Below are positions 764 through 62,539 of a stretch of 64,000 bases of DNA, piece by piece. Source of the stretch: an uncultured delta proteobacterium (GTDB lineage: Bacteria > Desulfobacterota > Binatia > Binatales > Binataceae); contig CAWFAJ010000010.1 of NCBI GenBank assembly GCA_963813785.1, positions 86,475 through 150,474 of the forward strand, given 5' to 3'. Position 1 is the first letter of the stretch, and every line of letters begins with the position of its first letter. The notes beneath the pieces were generated by a model, which did no database searches, was not told where the DNA came from, and saw only the letters and a list, made by a program, of their open reading frames with translations. Both the position numbers and the translations under genes were made by a program.

Positions 764-992
764 GCGCGGTGGACTGCTACATGGACGGAGTGCTGGCGGA
801 TCCCATCTTGCTGGTCTGCTTTGAATCCGGGTTGCGATTTCGGGGTTAGGGACAGGGTTTGCGGCGCGTCGGACAATTGCGCCGCAGTTGTCCCTCACCT
901 AACCTCTCCCGATACAGGACGAAGGGATTTTAAGAGAAAGAGTCGGGGCCGGGGACGCCGCTATCTTCCGAGGGTTGGTTGCGCGTGCGCCC

Positions 993-1400
993 TTACTTAT
1001 CCTTGAACTCCCACATGCGCGCCTCGCCCTGCGGGTTTTCCCGGGTGGATCTCGCGTAAGGGCCATCGTTATCCTCGTACAGCGAGGTCCATTGTTCGGA
1101 CCAGTCGGCCTCATCGGGATTCAGGACGATCTCATTGCCGTAGTAGCCGCCCCCGTAGAAGCCGTTCCCGTAGGGCGGGTAATAAGGGAAGCTCTGATAG
1201 GGGCCATAGAATCGGCGGTTGTGCTGATTAAGACCCGCCCGATGCCCCATGCCAGCGTGATTGGCAGCGTGGCTTGCGGCGTGCGCAGAGGATCCGTGCG
1301 CGGCACCATTTGATGTGCCGGCACCGGCGCCGGCAGGGCCAGCGATTGCGAGCGCCATAGCCGCAAACATCACGACGGTAATTAATTTCATGGCTTTCAT
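993..1400 (-). CDS. Secreted hypothetical protein, Gly/His/Tyr-rich low complexity
   Basis: Start re-assigned to ATG 1400 (MKAMKLITVVMFAAMALAIAG..., signal-peptide-like); no family recognised. Confidence 0.6.
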   Translation of the reverse strand: MKAMKLITVVMFAAMALAIAGPAGAGAGTSNGAAHGSSAHAASHAANHAGMGHRAGLNQHNRRFYGPYQSFPYYPPYGNGFYGGGYYGNEIVLNPDEADWSEQWTSLYEDNDGPYARSTRENPQGEARMWEFKDK

Positions 1401-9362: not shown

Positions 9363-9600
9363 TGTACGAGATGTTCCAAACGCGCGGGAACCAGCTCGAT
9401 GATCCCAGCGCTGATGAACAATAGCGAGGTTGATACGGGAACAGTGGTTACCGGGGGCACGCTAAGGTGCGTATAATCGAGCTGAATCGGGGAGTTTCGG
9501 GAACGGCGCGATTATAGTTCAACGATATAGACTAGCTCGGTTGGGGCGCAGAACAAGCGTCAGCACAGAGCAGCGGCTGAAGCTCGGCAATGGCGGAGTG

Positions 9601-11445
9601 ATGGCAGTGGCGGACATCGAAAAACAAACAGAGCTAGCGTACGGCGAAAGTGAGGATCGCTTCGCGCTGCTATCGGTTGCCGCACCGGTTTGCGCACTGA
9701 TCATCGCTACCGGCGCATTGTACCTGGGCAGATCGGTCCTGTTTCCGCTGACGATTGCACTGATTCTGAGCGTGGTCTTCAGTCCGGTCGCAACCCGGCT
9801 CGAGCGATACTTCGGGCGCCTGATAAGCGCCGCACTAGTAGTACTAGTGGTAATCGGCGCAATTGCGGCGACTGCGTATTTTCTGACTATTGAACTGACT
9901 ACCGTTGCCGACCAGGTCGCTGGATACTCGGACAATATCGGAAACAAATTGGCGTCGCTTGAAAAAATCGCGCCCCCATGGCTCCAGCATATCAAGGACG
10001 CGGTATCCGACGTTCAGCGTCGCATAGCAAGCACCAATCCGGCGCCCCGCCAGCCGCGAGAAGTGATGGCTCTTCCGGTTCCAACCTCTCTTAGCGACAG
10101 CTTGAAGCCGGTTGTTCCGATCGTCGATGGCATGCTCAAGACGCTGCTCATCATCATGCTGCTGTTTTTTCTGCTTTACAGCCGAAAGGATTTGCGCGAT
10201 CGATTTGTCCGGCTGGCGGCACGGGGAAGAATTCCGATCGCAGCGCAAGCGATAGACACCGCAGGCCACACCGTCGGCCGCTACCTGCTGCTCTTTTCGG
10301 CGATCAATCTTGCCTACGGCGTCGCCGCCGGAACCGTGGCCTGGTTTATCGGACTGCCGAGTGCTCCGCTGTGGGGTCTGCTCGCATTCCTGTTACGATT
10401 CATTCCATATGTCGGCGCGATCAGCTCGGCGCTGCTGCCCGCGCTGGTCGCTTTTGCATTGTTTCCCGGATGGAGCAAAGCGCTCGAGATACTTGGCGCC
10501 TTTGTGATTATCGACCAGGTTGCGGCGCAGTTTGCGGAGCCATTTATCATCGGCCGTGGGATTGGCGTCTCTCCGGTGGCGCTGCTGATATCCGCGATGT
10601 ACTGGTATTGGCTGTGGGGAATACCCGGGCTGCTGCTATCGACGCCGTTGACCGCTTGTCTTAAGGTTGCGGGCGACTTTATCCCGCCGCTGGGGTTTCT
10701 CTCGATTCTGCTCGGCGCGGACCGAGGACTCGACGACTATCACGACTTCTACCGCTTGCTGCTTGAACTCAACCCGTCAGGAGCGAGAGAAGTTGCGATC
10801 CGCCATTGCGATGAGAATGGGCTGGAGGGAACTTTTGACGACGTGATTGAGCCGGCGCTGGTGCTGATGGGTGAGGAGCGCGCGGACGGCCATATCAGTG
10901 ACGAGAATCAGCAGCTCATCATCGATACAACCCATCAACTGATTGCTGAACTTGGAAACAGGTTCATCAAATCCCGCATTTCACCGAGCGTGCGAGTACT
11001 GGGCGTGTTGGCGCCAGGCGAGATGCACTTTCTGGGATTGTTGATATTGCTCGAGCTGCTGCGCAAAGAGGGCGTGATCGCAACCTTTGCCGGCGAGAAT
11101 AAATCACCGGAGGAGATTTGCGATCTGGTCAAACGGTTCATGCCGGACTTCGTCTTCGTCTCGTGCGTAACCGCCGACTGTTTGCCAGCCGCGCTGGAAC
11201 TGGTGGCGGCTTTACGATCCGTCTCGTCTCGCGTAACGATCATTGCAGGCGGCGAGGCAGCGTTGCACCAGTTGACCGAGCTCATAAATGCGGGATGCTC
11301 GCAGATCTGCGCCAACCCCAACGAAGCCCGGCGCGCGGTCCGGCGCTTCATTCTCCAACGCGCAAAATCCCGGCTTGCCTTCGGAGCGCTCCTGCCACGA
11401 CGCTATGCACGCGCGGCGCTACCCGCATCCGAAAAAGCAAAATGA
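9601..11445 (+). CDS. AI-2E family transporter fused to C-terminal cap + cobalamin-binding domain
   Basis: AI-2E motifs LRFIPYVG, EPFIIG..GVSP, WLWGIPGLLLSTPLT; C-terminal VIEPALVLMGE and PGEMHFLG...PDFVFVS...IIAGG; start uncertain (9541-9601). Confidence 0.85.
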   Translation: MAVADIEKQTELAYGESEDRFALLSVAAPVCALIIATGALYLGRSVLFPLTIALILSVVFSPVATRLERYFGRLISAALVVLVVIGAIAATAYFLTIELTTVADQVAGYSDNIGNKLASLEKIAPPWLQHIKDAVSDVQRRIASTNPAPRQPREVMALPVPTSLSDSLKPVVPIVDGMLKTLLIIMLLFFLLYSRKDLRDRFVRLAARGRIPIAAQAIDTAGHTVGRYLLLFSAINLAYGVAAGTVAWFIGLPSAPLWGLLAFLLRFIPYVGAISSALLPALVAFALFPGWSKALEILGAFVIIDQVAAQFAEPFIIGRGIGVSPVALLISAMYWYWLWGIPGLLLSTPLTACLKVAGDFIPPLGFLSILLGADRGLDDYHDFYRLLLELNPSGAREVAIRHCDENGLEGTFDDVIEPALVLMGEERADGHISDENQQLIIDTTHQLIAELGNRFIKSRISPSVRVLGVLAPGEMHFLGLLILLELLRKEGVIATFAGENKSPEEICDLVKRFMPDFVFVSCVTADCLPAALELVAALRSVSSRVTIIAGGEAALHQLTELINAGCSQICANPNEARRAVRRFILQRAKSRLAFGALLPRRYARAALPASEKAK

Positions 11446-11446
11446 T

Positions 11447-12088
11447 CTAGAAGCCTGGACGAAGCGCGTCTTGGGCAATCCGCTCGGGCGGAGGCGGGAA
11501 GCATGGCAGCGTGCTGGTGACCACGTAATGGTAATAGTTCCCGTTCCACGTGAACGTTCCGGCCGGTTTGCCAAAATTCGAAGCCATCGCGGCAAACCGA
11601 TCGGCGTCGGCTACCGAGATGAATTGCGAGGGCGTAAACGCCATAAAGTTGCTCGCCGTCTCGGGAACCACTGCGCCCAGCGGCGGCGAGAAATTCATCT
11701 GAAGAAAATTAACCGCCGGCCGCCAACCATCGGTCGTCGTTTCACTGTCCGCTATCGGTATCCATTGCCACTCGTCGAGCGAATCGCTAAGCCGCAACTC
11801 ACGATACTCGGGCGTGCCGGCAGTACTCCTTCGCAACTCGATCACGCCCGGAACTTCGGCTTCGAGCTGGTCACATCTGTCAGCGCTATTCATTGCACGG
11901 TCACGCGCGTCTGCTTCCTGCTTTGCGCGACCGGCCCCTGGATGCCTACTCGCGCTCACGCTCGAGCCAATACCCGCCGTCAGTTCAATTGCACCAGCGC
12001 CGACCTCCTCGGCGGCGCTAGCCATGATGGGCGCGAATTGAGCCGCTGCCATCCAGCATCCGCTGACCCCAACTGCGACCGCAGTCAC
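11447..12088 (-). CDS. Putative lipoprotein, hypothetical
   Basis: Lipobox-like VSGC after a hydrophobic stretch; frame stays open upstream (LRRQFCSSLVAILVTAVAVGVSGC), so true start may be CTG at 12127. Confidence 0.6.
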   Translation of the reverse strand: MTAVAVGVSGCWMAAAQFAPIMASAAEEVGAGAIELTAGIGSSVSASRHPGAGRAKQEADARDRAMNSADRCDQLEAEVPGVIELRRSTAGTPEYRELRLSDSLDEWQWIPIADSETTTDGWRPAVNFLQMNFSPPLGAVVPETASNFMAFTPSQFISVADADRFAAMASNFGKPAGTFTWNGNYYHYVVTSTLPCFPPPPERIAQDALRPGF

Positions 12089-12326
12089 GAGTATCGCAAC
12101 GAGCGATGAGCAGAATTGTCGCCTCAGGTGATCGATAAAACCCCCGACCCGGACCGTCAGCGCACCAATGAACTTCTCAAGGACGGACGCCGTCCTCCGG
12201 TCGCGGTTAGCCTAGCAGAAATTGCGAAATATAAATGCCGGGGAAAGCATCGCGCAGATCGGTCTCGTAGATAGCGAGTCGCCGCTGATTAGGCGAATCG
12301 CGCGCCCGCAATGATCCGGTATTCGA

Positions 12327-12442
12327 GAAAAAGAACGGCCGGGCTACGAGTGGGGACCGTGGTGGGGAGCCTACGGTTCAAGTAGCCCGGCCTGCTTGGG
12401 AACAGACGCTGTTCGTCTCGGGGGAGGAGATTATCAGCGTAA
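12327..12442 (-). ncRNA. Candidate sigma54-dependent small RNA with C-rich loops
   Basis: Lies between a sigma54 motif (12453-12469) and an 11-bp perfect stem GGCCGGGCTAC/GTAGCCCGGCC followed by GTTCTTTTTC; CUCCCC in two loops; no credible ORF. Confidence 0.6.
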
Positions 12443-12452
12443 CAGGAGTTGG

Positions 12453-12469
12453 AGCAAAGTTTGTGCCGA
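12453..12469 (-). promoter_or_regulatory. sigma54 (-24/-12) promoter
   Basis: Minus strand TCGGCACAAACTTTGCT = GG-N10-GC with GGCAC and TTGCT, close to consensus TGGCAC-N5-TTGCW. Confidence 0.7.
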
Positions 12470-12840
12470 GAAAAAACCTAGGCAAAATCAAGGCATCGCA
12501 GTCAGATTTTTTCTCTTTCTGCGACTGGGAACATCCGAAAGTCTCGAATTCAACCACTTTTCCGGCCAAAAGCGCGAGTTTTGCAAGTTGCGACCTCACC
12601 ACCGGATGCGATCCCAAAATTCGCATCTCACGTATGTAATCCGGCGGATTGCGCTAGGAAGACTGCGCCGGGCGCAGTGCTGATCATGCGTGGATGGAGA
12701 TTAAACGCCGGGACCGACATGAGGCGCTCGACAAGACGGCGCTCGGAATTCAAGCTGCCGCCATCGACAGGATCGTGTGCCGCGCGGGCTGTCTCACGAA
12801 TAGATTTGGTGAACAAAACCGAGATGCGAACGATCATCGG

Positions 12841-12869
12841 TTGAGAGCCGATCGTCGGTGTGTTACTTC
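12841..12869 (+). promoter_or_regulatory. Possible sigma70 promoter of tRNA operon
   Basis: TTGAGA-17 nt-TACTTC ending 10 nt before tRNA-Pro; -10 element weak. Confidence 0.3.
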
Positions 12870-12878
12870 CTAAGGGCT

Positions 12879-12952
12879 CGGGGCGTAGCGCAGCTTGGTA
12901 GCGCACCTGCCTTGGGAGCAGGGGGTCGGCCGTTCAAATCGGCTCGCCCCGA
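12879..12952 (+). tRNA. tRNA-Pro(TGG)
   Basis: CGGGGCG acceptor, anticodon arm CCTGC-CTTGGGA-GCAGG, GTTCAAATC T-loop; CCA not encoded. Confidence 0.97.
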
Positions 12953-12954
12953 TC

Positions 12955-13031
<77 letters not shown>

Positions 13032-13091
13032 CGGAGGCGAATTCTGAATCGGCGGCTCGATGCGCCGGGCGGATTGAAACAGAGCGAGAGT

Positions 13092-13168
13092 GGTGAGTGT
13101 AGCTCAGTTGGCAGAGCATCGGATTGTGGCTCCGGCGGTCGAGGGTTCAAATCCCTTCACTCACCCCA
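13092..13168 (+). tRNA. tRNA-His(GTG)
   Basis: G-1, GTGAGTG acceptor, TCGGA-TTGTGGC-TCCGG, C discriminator + CCA. Confidence 0.97.
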
Positions 13169-13201
13169 AACATCCTGCTACGTAAGCGTGGTTTCGACGG
13201 T

Positions 13202-13277
<76 letters not shown>

Positions 13278-13311
13278 AAAAACCCGGAAACAATCCATAG
13301 TCGCGGCTGCT

Positions 13312-14346
13312 TCAGTGCGCGATTTTCTCTCGGGCACTTAGGCGGTACACGAACACGAAATAGACCGCGACCAGCGCCATGCCGGGGATGAACCAGTAAA
13401 GGCCCACGGTAAGGCCGTAGGATCCGGCGGCGCTGTTGGAAACCGCAAGCCCCGCGGCCGCCTCGGTACTCGAGGGCAAAAGGTACGGATAGAGGCCGAA
13501 CGCCGCGCTGGTGAGCATCCCGACGATGTACAGGCAGGAGGCGAGAAACGCCGCCATCGGCCGCCCGGCGCCATTCAACAGTTTCATCCCGAACATCCCG
13601 GTTGCCGCGGCGAGCGGAAAGACGAATCCCCACGGGGCGTCCGCGAAGCGGTGGCCGAGGTGCGGCTGGACCAGGGGAACGATGATCACCAGGAGCGCGG
13701 TGATGACCAGCACCGCCCACCACGCGACCTCGGCGGCTTGGTGGGCGCGTGCCGCGACGGCACCCTCGGTCTTCATCGCGACCCACAACGCTCCGTGCAC
13801 GGTGAGCGCCGCGAAGCTTCCGAGTGCGACGATTATCGTGAACCAGTCGAGGATCCCGGCCGTGGGCATCAGGCGCAGGTTGGCCCACAGCGGCAGGAAG
13901 AAGAAGCCCGAGTGGTCAAGCGGAACGCCGCGTACGACGTTGCCGATCGCGGCGCCGAAGAAGATCGCGAGCATCGCGCTTGCGGCGGCGAACACCACGT
14001 CCCACAACGGATACCACACCAGGCTCGAGACCTTGTTGCGAAACTCGATCGCGATGCCGCGCAGGATGAGGAGCCAGAGCACGATTATGAGCGGCAGATA
14101 AAATCCCTGGAAGCCCGAGGCATAAACCGCGGGGAAGGCGAAAAACAGGATACCGCCGCCGGCCACCAGCCAGACCTCGTTGCCGTCCCATACGGGGCCC
14201 ACCGAGGCCAGCACCAAGCGGCGTTCGGCCTCGGAGCGCGCGACGAAAAGATGGACGATGCCGGCGCCGAGATCGAACCCGTCGAACACGGCATAGCCGG
14301 CGATCATTATCGCCACCAGGCAGAACCAGAGCGTTTCCGTATGCAC
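13312..14346 (-). CDS. cydB: Cytochrome bd ubiquinol oxidase subunit II
   Basis: DGFDLGAG, GPVWDGNEVWL, LRGIAIEFR; real start near 14340-14346 after AGGAGG (ORF-track N-terminal extension overlaps cydA). Confidence 0.95.
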   Translation of the reverse strand: MHTETLWFCLVAIMIAGYAVFDGFDLGAGIVHLFVARSEAERRLVLASVGPVWDGNEVWLVAGGGILFFAFPAVYASGFQGFYLPLIIVLWLLILRGIAIEFRNKVSSLVWYPLWDVVFAAASAMLAIFFGAAIGNVVRGVPLDHSGFFFLPLWANLRLMPTAGILDWFTIIVALGSFAALTVHGALWVAMKTEGAVAARAHQAAEVAWWAVLVITALLVIIVPLVQPHLGHRFADAPWGFVFPLAAATGMFGMKLLNGAGRPMAAFLASCLYIVGMLTSAAFGLYPYLLPSSTEAAAGLAVSNSAAGSYGLTVGLYWFIPGMALVAVYFVFVYRLSAREKIAH

Positions 14347-14351
14347 CTCCT

Positions 14352-15722
14352 TCAATCGGCCGCGAGCGCCGACCCGCTTTCGCCAGCCGCACCGTGCTCG
14401 TCCGCCGCAGCCTCGGGTCCGCGCTGCACTTCGAGATAGAGCAGGAACAGGAACAGGACCGCGAGCAGGCTGTACATTCCGGCAAAGCCTATCAAGGTGA
14501 ACATCGCGTTGCCCGCGGAAACCTCGATCGAGCTGCCGACGGCGGTCCGCATTAGCCCATAGACCACCCATGGTTGTCGCCCGACCTCCGCGGTTAACCA
14601 TCCAGCGGTCGTTGCAATATAGGGAAACGGCGCGAGCAGCATCAGCGCCCATAGCATTAGTGGCGTATCGTAAAGCCGCCCGCGCCAGAGCATATAAGCC
14701 GCAAGCGCGAGCACCCCGACAAAGGTTGTGCCGAGGCCCGCCATGATGTGGTAGGCGAAGTAAAGCAGCGGGATGTTGTCGGGCCAGCGGTCCTCGGGAA
14801 AGGCGTCGAGCCCTTTCACCTCGGCCTTCCATCGCCGGAAGGTAAGAAAGCTCAGCAGCCGCGGCAGATAGATAGGATTGTCGAGCTTCTTCTCGGTCAT
14901 GTTGGGCTGCCCTACCAGCATGAGCGGCGCGCCGCGTTCGTTGGTGAAGAGTCCTTCCATAGCAGCCAGCGTAACCGGCTGGTCATAAGCGATGTTCCTG
15001 CCCTGGGCGTCTCCGGTCGGGAAAATCATCAGGCATGAGGCTATGAGCCCCGCCGTCACCCCCATCGCGACGAATATCCGTGCGTACTCGAGGTGCTGGC
15101 GGGTAAGCAGGTAGAAGGCGCCGAGCGCCGCCATCACCACGCTGGCAGTCACCACCGATGCGGTCATGGTGTGCATATACTGCCACCAGGCCCATTGATT
15201 CATAAGCAACGCCCAGAAGCTTGACAGCGCGAAGCGGCCATCAGGCAAAAGCTGGTAGCCGACCGGATGCTGCATCCAGGCGTTGGTCGCGATGATGAAG
15301 AAGCCGGAAAGCCATGCGCCGAGGAACACGAGGAAGGCGCTGAGCCAATGCAGGCGGGGCCCAAGCCGCCTTTCCCCGAACAGGAAGGCGCCGAGAAAGC
15401 TCGATTCAAGGAAAAACGAAAACACTCCCTCCATCGCGAGCGTCTGGCCGATGACACCGCCTGTGGCGCGCGAAAAAAGCGCCCAGTTGGTGCCGAACTG
15501 AAACTCCATCGGGATCCCGGTGACCACTCCCATCGCGAAATTGATCCCGAAGATACGGCCCCAGAAGCGGGCGGCGTGGTTGTAACACTCCTTGCCCGTT
15601 CTCAGCGCTTGAGTCTTCAGGATGACCAGCAACAGCGCCAGGCCCATCGTGAGCTGGGGAAACAGATAGTGGAACACTGCGGTAAACGCGAAGTGCAGGC
15701 GATGAACCGTAACTGCGTCCAT
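14352..15722 (-). CDS. cydA: Cytochrome bd ubiquinol oxidase subunit I
   Basis: HYLFPQLTMG, GVVTGIPMEFQFGTNW, NAWMQHP, QPVTLAAMEG, GWLTAEVGRQPW. Confidence 0.97.
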   Translation of the reverse strand: MDAVTVHRLHFAFTAVFHYLFPQLTMGLALLLVILKTQALRTGKECYNHAARFWGRIFGINFAMGVVTGIPMEFQFGTNWALFSRATGGVIGQTLAMEGVFSFFLESSFLGAFLFGERRLGPRLHWLSAFLVFLGAWLSGFFIIATNAWMQHPVGYQLLPDGRFALSSFWALLMNQWAWWQYMHTMTASVVTASVVMAALGAFYLLTRQHLEYARIFVAMGVTAGLIASCLMIFPTGDAQGRNIAYDQPVTLAAMEGLFTNERGAPLMLVGQPNMTEKKLDNPIYLPRLLSFLTFRRWKAEVKGLDAFPEDRWPDNIPLLYFAYHIMAGLGTTFVGVLALAAYMLWRGRLYDTPLMLWALMLLAPFPYIATTAGWLTAEVGRQPWVVYGLMRTAVGSSIEVSAGNAMFTLIGFAGMYSLLAVLFLFLLYLEVQRGPEAAADEHGAAGESGSALAAD

Positions 15723-25340: not shown

Positions 25341-26666
25341 ATGGCCGAACGCTGTGACGTAGCGATCGTTGGAGCCGGGCCGGGCGCTTCGATTGCCGCA
25401 TATATCCTCGCCAAGGGCGGGCTCGAAGTGATTATGTTCGAGCGCGGCGACTACCCGGGCTCAAAGGCGATGTTCGGTGGTGTGCTCTACACGACCGTGC
25501 TCAGCAAGTACTTTCCGGACTTTCCGGGAGCAGGCTGCGTCGAGCGCCACGTCATCGAAAAGCGTTTCTCGATGCTTTCGGCGAGCGATGAGCTTGCGCT
25601 CTCGTTCAAGTTCCTCGATTTCGAGCCTCCTTATTACAACCATTCGTTCACGGCCCTGCGCGCTATATTCGACCGCTACCTGGCCAAAAAGGCGGAAGCG
25701 GCAGGCGCGCTGCTGGTCACGCAGACGGTTGTCGACGAGGTAATCGCGAGCGAAGGCCGGGTGGTGGGAGTTCGCGCGCGGCGCGAGGGTGGCGAGGTGC
25801 TCGCCAACGTGGTGATCGCCGCGGACGGCGCGAATTCGCTGATCGCGCAGTCGGCGGGGCTTCGCGGCGAGCTTCCGCTCTCGGTGATTCTCGGCGTCAA
25901 GGAGGTGGTCTCCCTGCCGCGCGAAGTCATCGAGGATCGCTTTTCGCTGGAAGGAGACGAAGGCGCGGCGTACGAGTATCTCGGCGGCGGCGCGGTGCGG
26001 GGCGCGATGGGGGCGGGTTTCCTCTACACCAACCGCGACACGATTTCCGTAGGCTACGGGATCCCGCTAGGCGCGCTCAAAGCGCTGGGCGCCCAGCCCG
26101 ACGAGCTGTTGAACGAATTCAAGATGCATCCGGTGGTGCGCCGTCTACTGCGTGGCACCACGCCCGAGGAGTACTCGGCGCATCTGATTCCGGAGATGAC
26201 GCCGCGCGACCTGCCGCATTTCGTGGGCGACGGAATTGTCGTAATCGGCGGCGCTGCCGGGCTGGTCAATGCGAACCCGCTATTCCACGAGGGCACCAAC
26301 ATGGCGATGGCCTCGGGGGTGATGGCGGCCGAGACGATTCTCCAGGCGCACAAGGCGGGCGACTATTCGGCCAAGGCGCTCGAGCCCTACGCGAGCCGCC
26401 TTCGCGAGAGCTTCGCGTGGCAGGATTACGATCGCTATCAGGGGCTGACGCGGATGGCCGAGACCCATCCCCAGTTCTTCAGCAAATACCCCTACGAATT
26501 CACCAAGCTCGCGCGCAAGTTGTTTTCCGTCGAGCCCACCGATGACGGGATGCAGGTGCCCAAGCGCACGCTGGAGCTGGCCGTCGCGGATCACGTACTC
26601 GCCGAGCTCGGGCTGATGAGCCTCGGCCTGGACCTTCTCGCGGCCGGCAAGGCGGCTATACTCTAA
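25341..26666 (+). CDS. fixC: FixC-like FAD-dependent (ETF:quinone) oxidoreductase
   Basis: GAGPG, ERGDYPGSKAMFGG, ADGANS, GAGFLYTNRDT, EYSAHLIPE, EGTNMAMASG. Confidence 0.85.
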   Translation: MAERCDVAIVGAGPGASIAAYILAKGGLEVIMFERGDYPGSKAMFGGVLYTTVLSKYFPDFPGAGCVERHVIEKRFSMLSASDELALSFKFLDFEPPYYNHSFTALRAIFDRYLAKKAEAAGALLVTQTVVDEVIASEGRVVGVRARREGGEVLANVVIAADGANSLIAQSAGLRGELPLSVILGVKEVVSLPREVIEDRFSLEGDEGAAYEYLGGGAVRGAMGAGFLYTNRDTISVGYGIPLGALKALGAQPDELLNEFKMHPVVRRLLRGTTPEEYSAHLIPEMTPRDLPHFVGDGIVVIGGAAGLVNANPLFHEGTNMAMASGVMAAETILQAHKAGDYSAKALEPYASRLRESFAWQDYDRYQGLTRMAETHPQFFSKYPYEFTKLARKLFSVEPTDDGMQVPKRTLELAVADHVLAELGLMSLGLDLLAAGKAAIL

Positions 26667-62522: not shown

Positions 62523-62539
62523 ATGCAACCGATATGCCA
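62523..62539 (-). promoter_or_regulatory. sigma54 (-24/-12) promoter of thiolase operon
   Basis: Minus strand TGGCATATCGGTTGCAT = TGGCA..GG-N10-GC..TTGCA, ~40 nt upstream of thiolase ATG. Confidence 0.75.

Follow-up and report, generated by a model that had tools for sequence, protein, structure and literature searches.

Several bacterial small RNAs (sRNAs) are controlled by sigma-54 RNA polymerase together with an enhancer-binding protein (EBP); besides Qrr with LuxO in Vibrio and GlmY with GlrR, they include CrcZ with CbrB, NrsZ/NfiS with NtrC, and Pxr in Myxococcus, and the Qrr and GlmZ-type systems use Hfq. Other sRNAs are marked by unpaired C-rich regions. Those of RsaE/RoxS and IsrR in the Firmicutes are thought to bind G-rich ribosome-binding sites (RBSs) independently of a chaperone, and the regulators in these cases are ResD/Rex and Fur, not sigma-54. 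The portions of the reports on which we draw describe 6C of the Actinobacteria as a chaperone-independent regulator of multiple targets that acts by G-C pairing through C-rich loops (PMC6486639), and the cuckoo RNAs of the Alphaproteobacteria as two to four adjacent hairpins, each with the loop motif CCUCCUCCC, which resembles an anti-Shine-Dalgarno (anti-SD) sequence (PMC4615179). Here we describe an element on the minus strand of a 64,000-nucleotide stretch of a Binataceae genome (contig CAWFAJ010000010.1, positions 86,475 to 150,474, here called the window), which corresponds to a previously undescribed predicted RNA that matches no Rfam family and is kin in kind both to the sigma-54/EBP sRNAs and to the sRNAs with C-rich loops.

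As with Qrr/LuxO and GlmY/GlrR, the predicted gene stands alone, with a -24/-12 promoter and a candidate EBP site upstream. Taking all parts together, we think it fairly probable that positions 12327–12442 of the minus strand specify a stand-alone, EBP-activated, chaperone-independent trans-acting sRNA of about 115 nt that acts through C-rich motifs on G-rich RBSs. The parts of this proposal differ in strength: a real, independently transcribed sRNA gene is very probable; granted such a gene, control by sigma-54 and an EBP is highly likely; and base pairing of the C-rich motifs with G-rich RBSs has slightly better than even chances. An earlier interpretation made from the letters of the DNA (the sequence-only reading) had suggested a new family of trans-acting sRNAs under EBP control, and this is supported by a conserved promoter box, covarying stems and the lack of an Rfam match.

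Conserved structure and limits of the element

Reading out the minus strand between 12327 and 12469 located every element that the sequence-only reading had named. From the upstream end, the parts are the following, with the neighbouring operon last.

12511–12524, minus strand: candidate enhancer TCGCAGAAAGAGAA for EBP binding, beginning 57 nt upstream of the -24 GG and lying at about -82 to -69 from the predicted start of transcription (+1).
12453–12468, minus strand: sigma-54 type -24/-12 promoter CGGCACAAACTTTGCT, with GG at 12467–12466, GC at 12455–12454 and one mismatch to TGGCAC-N5-TTGCW.
12327–12442, minus strand: predicted sRNA transcript of about 116 nt, its +1 placed at about 12442 ±2 from the -12 element and its 3' end placed in the U-tract.
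12406–12440, minus strand: stem-loop 1, with outer stem ACGCUG/CAGCGU (12440–12435/12411–12406) and inner stem UCUC/GAGA (12430–12427/12419–12416), in the minimum free energy (MFE) fold and in the RNAalifold consensus.
12420–12426, minus strand: C-rich loop 1, CUCCCCC, which with its 5' flank reads UCUCCUCCCCC and includes the anti-SD core CCUCC; unpaired in the MFE fold and RNAalifold.
12393–12405, minus strand: linker CUGUUCCCAAGCA, C-rich motif 2, single-stranded in the consensus structure; family consensus GUCCCCAAGC.
12337–12392, minus strand: long terminator hairpin, with an 11-bp base stem GGCCGGGCUAC/GUAGCCCGGCC and inner stem ACCGU(A)GG/CCACGGU, in the MFE fold and RNAalifold.
12363–12369, minus strand: apical loop CUCCCCA, C-rich motif 3, in the MFE fold and RNAalifold.
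12348–12355, minus strand: internal loop CCCCACUC, C-rich motif 4, from the genus alignment.
12327–12336, minus strand: U-rich tail GUUCUUUUUC, immediately 3' of the hairpin; predicted intrinsic-terminator tail.
12878–13277, plus strand: tRNA Pro(TGG)-Arg(TCT)-His(GTG)-Lys(CTT) operon, the divergent neighbour, outside the RNA.

In DNA letters these are the box CGGCACAAACTTTGCT (12468–12453), TCTC-CTCCCCC-GAGA (12430–12416), the 11-bp stem GGCCGGGCTAC/GTAGCCCGGCC (12392–12382/12347–12337) with the inner stem ACCGTAGG/CCACGGT within it, the apical loop CTCCCCA (12369–12363), the internal CCCCACTC (12355–12348) and the tail GTTCTTTTTC (12336–12327).

The 131-nt stretch folds as RNA with -44.9 kcal/mol (z -4.39), and none of 200 shuffles was equally stable. 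Applied to the genus alignment, RNAalifold gives the outer stem ACGCUG/CAGCGU around UCUC/GAGA, then the CCCAAGC linker and then the long hairpin. The small hairpin TCTC/GAGA of the sequence-only reading is thus conserved but nested within an outer stem that the reading lacked. A second hairpin proposed there, GAACAG-CGT-CTGTTC (GAACAGCGTCTGTTC, 12414–12400), can be drawn in the sequence but is neither part of the MFE fold nor conserved: most relatives in the genus alignment retain only 3–4 bp of it, two (G009 and G018) have it broken, and we dropped it as a conserved part.

The stems covary in relatives, as had been anticipated. Pairing holds in 98.3% of the cells of the family alignment A3, where both sides have changed in 17 of the 26 pairs. 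Sliding the pairing partners leaves 29–49% of cells paired, and no shuffle out of 500 matched the observed alignment, a test that overstates the case, as A3 was fitted to a covariance model and its sequences are kin. Double changes occur in all six outer and in three inner pairs of stem-loop 1; in the terminator hairpin they occur in three of the 11 pairs of the base and five of the six inner pairs, with 99.9% and 95.6% of cells paired, respectively. Because of the fitting and the relatedness of the sequences, the analysis was repeated with plain MAFFT and RNAalifold on 35 diverse sequences; the outer, base and inner stems were recovered, and 10 of 21 pairs carried compensatory changes in this alignment, which was not fitted to a model.

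The limits of the element are equally sharp. The stretch from the -12 element to the RNA body is variable, conservation runs from the predicted +1 (about 12442) through the U-tract, and there it ends; conservation bounded in this way is the signature of a transcription unit. In the window GUUCUUUUUC comes directly after the GC-rich, 11-bp base stem, as expected of an intrinsic terminator, and the tail is T-rich in most members of the genus.

Within these limits the C-rich loops and the linker are unpaired and better conserved than the stems, in the genus as well as in the family alignments. Three C-rich motifs are family-wide, namely loop 1 CUCC(U)CCCCC, the linker GUCCCCAAGC, in which CCCAAGC is near-invariant across alignments, and the apical (C/U)CCCCA; the fourth, CCCCACUC, is shared only by the genus and its nearest relatives, and other genera have unrelated sequence in its place. 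By a heuristic parse of 89 distinct sequences, stem-loop 1 contained a run of at least four C in 85, the terminator hairpin in 87 and the linker in 70, with 13 linkers for which the parse failed.

Promoter, upstream site and candidate activators

Conservation of the sigma-54 box in relatives, on which the original proposal depended, was seen at a fixed offset from the RNA in 88 of 89 distinct loci, taken from among 99 model matches that had been chosen without regard to the promoter. In these 88, GG[CT][AG][CT]-N5-[TC]TGC lies with its -12 C 8–15 nt before the first position of the model, and at 10–12 nt in 83 of them, so that spacing between GG and GC is canonical and the distance to the predicted transcript fixed. 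The strict form GGCAC-N5-TTGC occurs in 60 of the 89, and in shuffled upstream regions the box was found in 0.06%. No sigma-70-like promoter was detected within 11000–14000 of the window. A second sigma-54-like box of the window, TGGCATATCGGTTGCA at 62524–62539 on the minus strand, has one mismatch.

Further upstream lies a second conserved element, T(C/T)GCA-N3-NGMGA(A), which is dyad-like; some genera have it as a perfect dyad, of which TCGCA-AGG-TGCGA is one. As T[CT]GCA-N4-5-[GCA][ACT]GAA it is present in 74 of the 89 distinct loci, 55–59 nt upstream of the GG in 65 of them, compared with 0.2% of shuffled upstream regions. The position and the symmetry of the site fit an enhancer for an EBP of the NtrC type, as it falls within the region some 70–150 bp upstream that is usual for such sites, and we suspect that an EBP binds there. 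In the part of the report that we used, the LuxO sites at the qrr promoters read ttgcaaaatgcaa and ttgcaatttgcaa (PMC10328515); with these the candidate site shares the 5-N3-5 geometry of the dyad and a left half-site of the type T[T/C]GCA, which is a resemblance and not a test. The upstream site accompanies one of the 272 sigma-54-like boxes of the genome, where about 1.6 are expected by chance, and this one is the sRNA promoter; a combination unique to one promoter is reminiscent of a dedicated EBP. Still further upstream, at about 12536–12575 (minus-strand GAAAAGTGG..GAATTCGAGACTTTC), is another block conserved within the genus only, which could be a second activator site, an IHF site or part of the promoter of the tRNA operon.

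The genome carries one rpoN and 11 strong EBP genes, and with the conserved dyad-like site at the usual enhancer distance this lends support to the suggested control by an EBP. Ten of the EBPs were scanned against the NCBIfam equivalogs and none reached a cut-off, the nearest being EBP3 to NtrC (499 vs 558.6 bits). One of the set, EBP1 (G000:C1:109440-110930, L203), shows 84% identity to its relatives only over residues 1–380, and over its last ~120 residues the sequence is rich in Arg and seems out of frame; its helix-turn-helix may have been lost through a frameshift or an assembly error.

Distribution, context and novelty

Its own genome, of 3.58 Mb, has one copy of the element. In the same genus a full-length match of 75–93% identity was present in 23 of 24 genomes, the exception being an 82% complete genome, whereas the same sequence search in 16 genomes of other families gave short chance matches only. 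A covariance model built from 24 genus sequences (R1, alignment A1), which scores the window copy at 139.9 bits, detected the RNA, nearly always as one copy, in 112 of the 151 family genomes sampled; these represent 20 of 30 genera, and among high-quality genomes the share was 79 of 95. With a second model, built from 99 family sequences (R2), the number of genomes was again 112 of 151, now spread over 21 of 30 genera. The genus counts and the tallies of both models include two unpublished genomes (G018, G023), and the family tallies three more (G082, G084, G111), of which the conclusions are independent. In a class-wide sample the model matched 14 of 17 genomes of the family, and in the 18 other families, represented by 133 genomes, it gave only two weak matches (27–28 bits; G025 and G272), neither convincing, which on inspection were a coding region and a generic terminator.

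A scan of 185,579 species genomes with an exact pattern returned 106 stretches, and almost all of the matches listed bear the name Candidatus Binatus, Binataceae, Binatia or "uncultured delta proteobacterium" in their titles. Thirteen of the listed matches had other taxon labels, of which ten were chance and three were true copies by the model. The latter (L149, L155 and L108), titled Acidiferrales, Thermodesulfobacteriota and Nitrospiraceae, score 130, 107 and 58 bits, and are probably mislabelled or misbinned Binataceae contigs. Judging from the matches found, the RNA is most likely specific to the family Candidatus Binataceae, as it is named in the named records.

A divergent copy in G044 (L217, ~900–1090, minus strand), located syntenically, upstream of the tRNA operon, was missed by both models, which means that the family is wider than the tallies; it has the sigma-54 box, C-rich loop 1 and the long hairpin, its CCCCAAGC motif is shifted 3' of the hairpin, and it is without a U-tract. 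Given this copy, absence from the genera that lack a model match (nine by R2) is not established. In G068 (L082) there are three tandem copies, at 1501–1612, 1722–1842 and 1940–2056, with R2 scores of 70.9, 37.4 and 63.8 bits; the outer two have sigma-54 boxes of their own, in the middle copy stem-loop 1 is changed, with covariation and a loop of the CCCUCCUCC type, and as no obvious box lies at the expected offset it may be co-transcribed.

The back-to-back arrangement with the tRNA operon, pointed out earlier, recurs in the family: in 23 of the 31 related loci examined the same operon lies upstream and divergent. The remaining eight have no tRNA operon within ~1.5 kb, and promoter and structure are still kept. 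Downstream in the window, ~240 nt away, is a 213-aa lipoprotein-like open reading frame (ORF; 11447–12088, minus strand) with a lipobox-like VSGC by eye. Elsewhere the downstream genes, likewise assigned by eye, are PolX-like on the same strand, or Gfo/Idh/MocA-like oxidoreductase, GST-like and Hsp70-like on the opposite strand. With its own predicted promoter, a hairpin and U-tract, and variable downstream genes, the element has the makeup of an independent unit. Among the other neighbours in the window, a cytochrome bd oxidase pair (13312–15722, minus strand) adjoins the tRNA operon, its CydA-like ORF having a GRQPW motif, and 9541–11445 on the plus strand encodes a membrane protein of 634 aa whose soluble C-terminal extension is long, both by eye.

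No match was expected in Rfam if the family was new, and none was found for the window copy or for seven divergent copies. At the gathering threshold, the 4227 models of Rfam 15, which we take to include the RsaE, 6C, Qrr, GlmY/GlmZ and Acido-1 families, returned only four tRNAs in the whole window, and the seven divergent family loci gave tRNAs only. At E <= 10, the region 12000–12900 gave three chance-level matches elsewhere or on the other strand, at 11–17 bits against gathering thresholds of 42–80. One, at 12629–12692 on the plus strand, resembles the purine riboswitch 2dG-II (17 bits vs a gathering threshold of 60, E 0.75) and is taken as chance. A full-text literature search found no paper that combines "Binatota" with "small RNA", and among the matches listed under Binatia-related taxon names the papers were, by title, ecological or genomic.

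Set beside the known systems, the RNA shares features with several and belongs to none. Qrr genes are multi-copy, and the Binataceae RNA is present in three tandem copies in one genome; unlike Qrr, it shows no similarity of sequence or structure (no Rfam match at E <= 10), and its presumed seed is C-rich and not Qrr-like. It also differs from the Qrr and GlmZ-type systems in that its own genome, 98.5% complete, gave no match to Hfq; nor was there one to CsrA, which fits the chaperone-independent G-C pairing of 6C, as far as the portion of that report on which we draw describes it. With 6C (PMC6486639) it has in common a high-GC organism and C-rich unpaired loops as presumed pairing sites in the absence of an Hfq match, and it differs in phylum, fold and promoter type and in having one motif in the linker and one in the terminator hairpin. 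The likeness to the cuckoo/CcsR RNAs is in loop 1, where the genus sequence UCUCCUCCCCC holds CUCCUCCC, identical in eight of nine letters to CCUCCUCCC as given in the cited part of the report (PMC4615179). Here, however, the hairpins are unlike each other, the other motifs are UCCCCA (apical loop CUCCCCA), the family-wide loop 1 is CUCCCCCC and not CCUCCUCCC, and promoter type and taxon differ; as the resemblance is confined to loop 1 and to the genus, and Rfam gave no match, we do not count the RNA among them. RsaE/RoxS and IsrR likewise have several unpaired C-rich regions, in an unrelated sequence and fold (no Rfam match).

Proposed function and its alternatives

We propose that a putative EBP binds the dyad-like site at about -76 and activates sigma-54 RNA polymerase at the -24/-12 box, and that transcription would stop at the long GC-rich hairpin and its U-tract. 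The RNA would then expose three family-wide C-rich unpaired motifs, and a fourth in the genus, which could base-pair with several mRNAs at their G-rich Shine-Dalgarno or start regions and keep the ribosome from binding; such pairing may proceed without Hfq, as in the C-rich-loop sRNAs 6C, RsaE/RoxS and CcsR. Pairing rich in G-C would stand in for the chaperone, as is reported for 6C (PMC6486639) and has been proposed for the cuckoo motif (PMC4615179).

Several results weigh against this proposal, some of them touching the transcription unit itself. The sigma-54 box taken alone is not above chance within the window, where two matches with at most one mismatch compare with 1.69 expected and at least two occurred in 56 of 100 shuffles; the case for its reality comes from its conservation across relatives and not from these window statistics. 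The boundaries of the transcript, +1 and 3' end alike, are predicted from sequence motifs. A simple terminator scan, limited to loops of 3–8 nt, did not list the long hairpin, and the U-tract is weak in several genera (e.g. L069, L083–L087). In A3, helix 3 is largely invariant, with four pairs constant and four varying on one side only, and to this is added the inflated shuffle test of that alignment.

Others concern the activator. The contig of the window carries none of the 11 EBP genes, and by eye no EBP was seen among the ORFs next to the RNA in the eight loci without the tRNA operon within ~1.5 kb. Nine EBPs (EBP8 and EBP11 left out) were followed into five genomes of genera without a model match (G044, G070, G058, G074 and G041), in which orthologue-level matches had 56–91% identity as opposed to at most 47% for the listed paralogue matches. 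EBP3, EBP4, EBP5 and EBP9 had orthologues in all five; EBP10 in four; EBP2 in four, with fragments in the fifth; EBP6 and EBP7 in three each and EBP1 in two. None of the nine is therefore absent from all five genomes, a test weakened by the divergent copy in G044.

The search for targets was no more favorable. For the four unpaired segments, duplex energies were calculated with 3,149 crude gene calls of one genome, taken at 26,604 candidate starts, and the top hits that overlap a Shine-Dalgarno sequence were, by eye, a CrtI-like oxidoreductase, an acyl-CoA mutase-like protein, an MFS transporter, DnaE, a hydrolase and an NHL-repeat protein, without a coherent target set or a functional theme. 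As a C-rich probe pairs with any strong Shine-Dalgarno sequence, such a scan cannot discriminate targets. Exact complements of the C-rich motifs in the genome are rare and not focused on starts, and none is a long perfect complement.

The main competitor of base pairing is a sponge, in which the three or four UCCCC(A) motifs would titrate a regulator that binds C-rich RNA, and we consider it unlikely. CsrB/RsmZ titrate CsrA through GGA motifs and CrcZ titrates Hfq/Crc; that CrcZ depends on sigma-54 and CbrB counts for a sponge here. So do the repetition of the same short motif in two hairpin loops and the linker, where it is better conserved than the stems, the tandem copies in one genome, which are common for sponge and Qrr-type sRNAs, and the failure of the single-genome scan to yield a coherent set of mRNA targets. 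On the other hand, no candidate binding protein came to light, neither CsrA nor Hfq having a match in the genome, and these two bind GGA or A/U-rich motifs anyway. Moreover, three motifs are few, and all the experimentally studied C-rich-loop sRNAs checked act by base pairing, according to the sections of the reports cited (PMC6486639, PMC4615179).

It is also conceivable, with a distinctly smaller probability, that what is conserved is DNA, a protein-binding or structural element tied to the tRNA operon, with the box as a silent or "parked" holoenzyme site. The tight linkage to the tRNA Pro-Arg-His-Lys operon in 23 of 31 loci agrees with this, and widespread non-productive sigma-54 binding sites have reportedly been seen in E. 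coli. However, the compensatory changes preserve G-C, A-U and G-U pairs on one strand, which argues for selection on an RNA; promoter and structure persist in the eight loci that lack the operon nearby; and the sharp limits at +1 and the U-tract match a transcription unit.

Very improbable is a third possibility, already raised in the sequence-only reading, that the element is a cis-acting 5' leader or attenuator of the lipoprotein-like ORF, with the hairpin and U-tract as a regulated terminator. The 213-aa ORF does follow the RNA on the same strand in the window and the two closest loci, but only in these three; since the downstream genes differ between genera and some are on the opposite strand, a leader or attenuator is ruled out as its general function, and the idea, largely refuted by synteny, is rejected. 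Sequence conservation, moreover, ends at the U-tract, and neither RNAalifold on the genus alignment nor MAFFT with RNAalifold gave a conserved alternative antiterminator pairing.

A small-protein-coding or dual-function transcript is the least probable reading of all: a mechanical 30-aa ORF with a TTG start (12289–12381, minus strand) does begin within the hairpin, but it continues past the terminator into unconserved sequence, and 1-nt indels in the hairpin interior among relatives break the frame. The statement that the element holds no ORF is true in the relevant sense, as the RNA body is without an AUG and the mechanical ORFs that overlap it, this one and one of 82 aa at 12378–12626, are not conserved and cross either the terminator or the indel-rich, poorly conserved promoter region.

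Returning to the base-pairing sRNA that we favor, a bolder version of it gives a dedicated two-component or EBP pathway this RNA as its only output. Such a LuxO-Qrr-like module, invented independently in the Binataceae, would reprogram the translation of many mRNAs with G-rich RBSs without a chaperone; we regard this as improbable. If it were true, one EBP, one enhancer and one sRNA (in three tandem copies in one genus) would make up the switch, and the linkage to the tRNA operon would be a shared control region that couples it to translation capacity.

The alignments A1 and A3 could seed an Rfam family, and the delimited parts of the element make it directly testable in heterologous systems and a reporter of a sigma-54/EBP signal that could be quantified in metatranscriptomes. 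The proposed RNA would extend the design of chaperone-independent sRNAs with C-rich loops beyond the Gram-positives and the Alphaproteobacteria and place it under sigma-54 control. The Binataceae (Binatota), uncultured and known only from metagenome-assembled genomes, are widespread in soils and sediments, and the RNA described here would be the first defined riboregulator of this lineage, with a delimited promoter, a candidate enhancer site, a structure and seed motifs.

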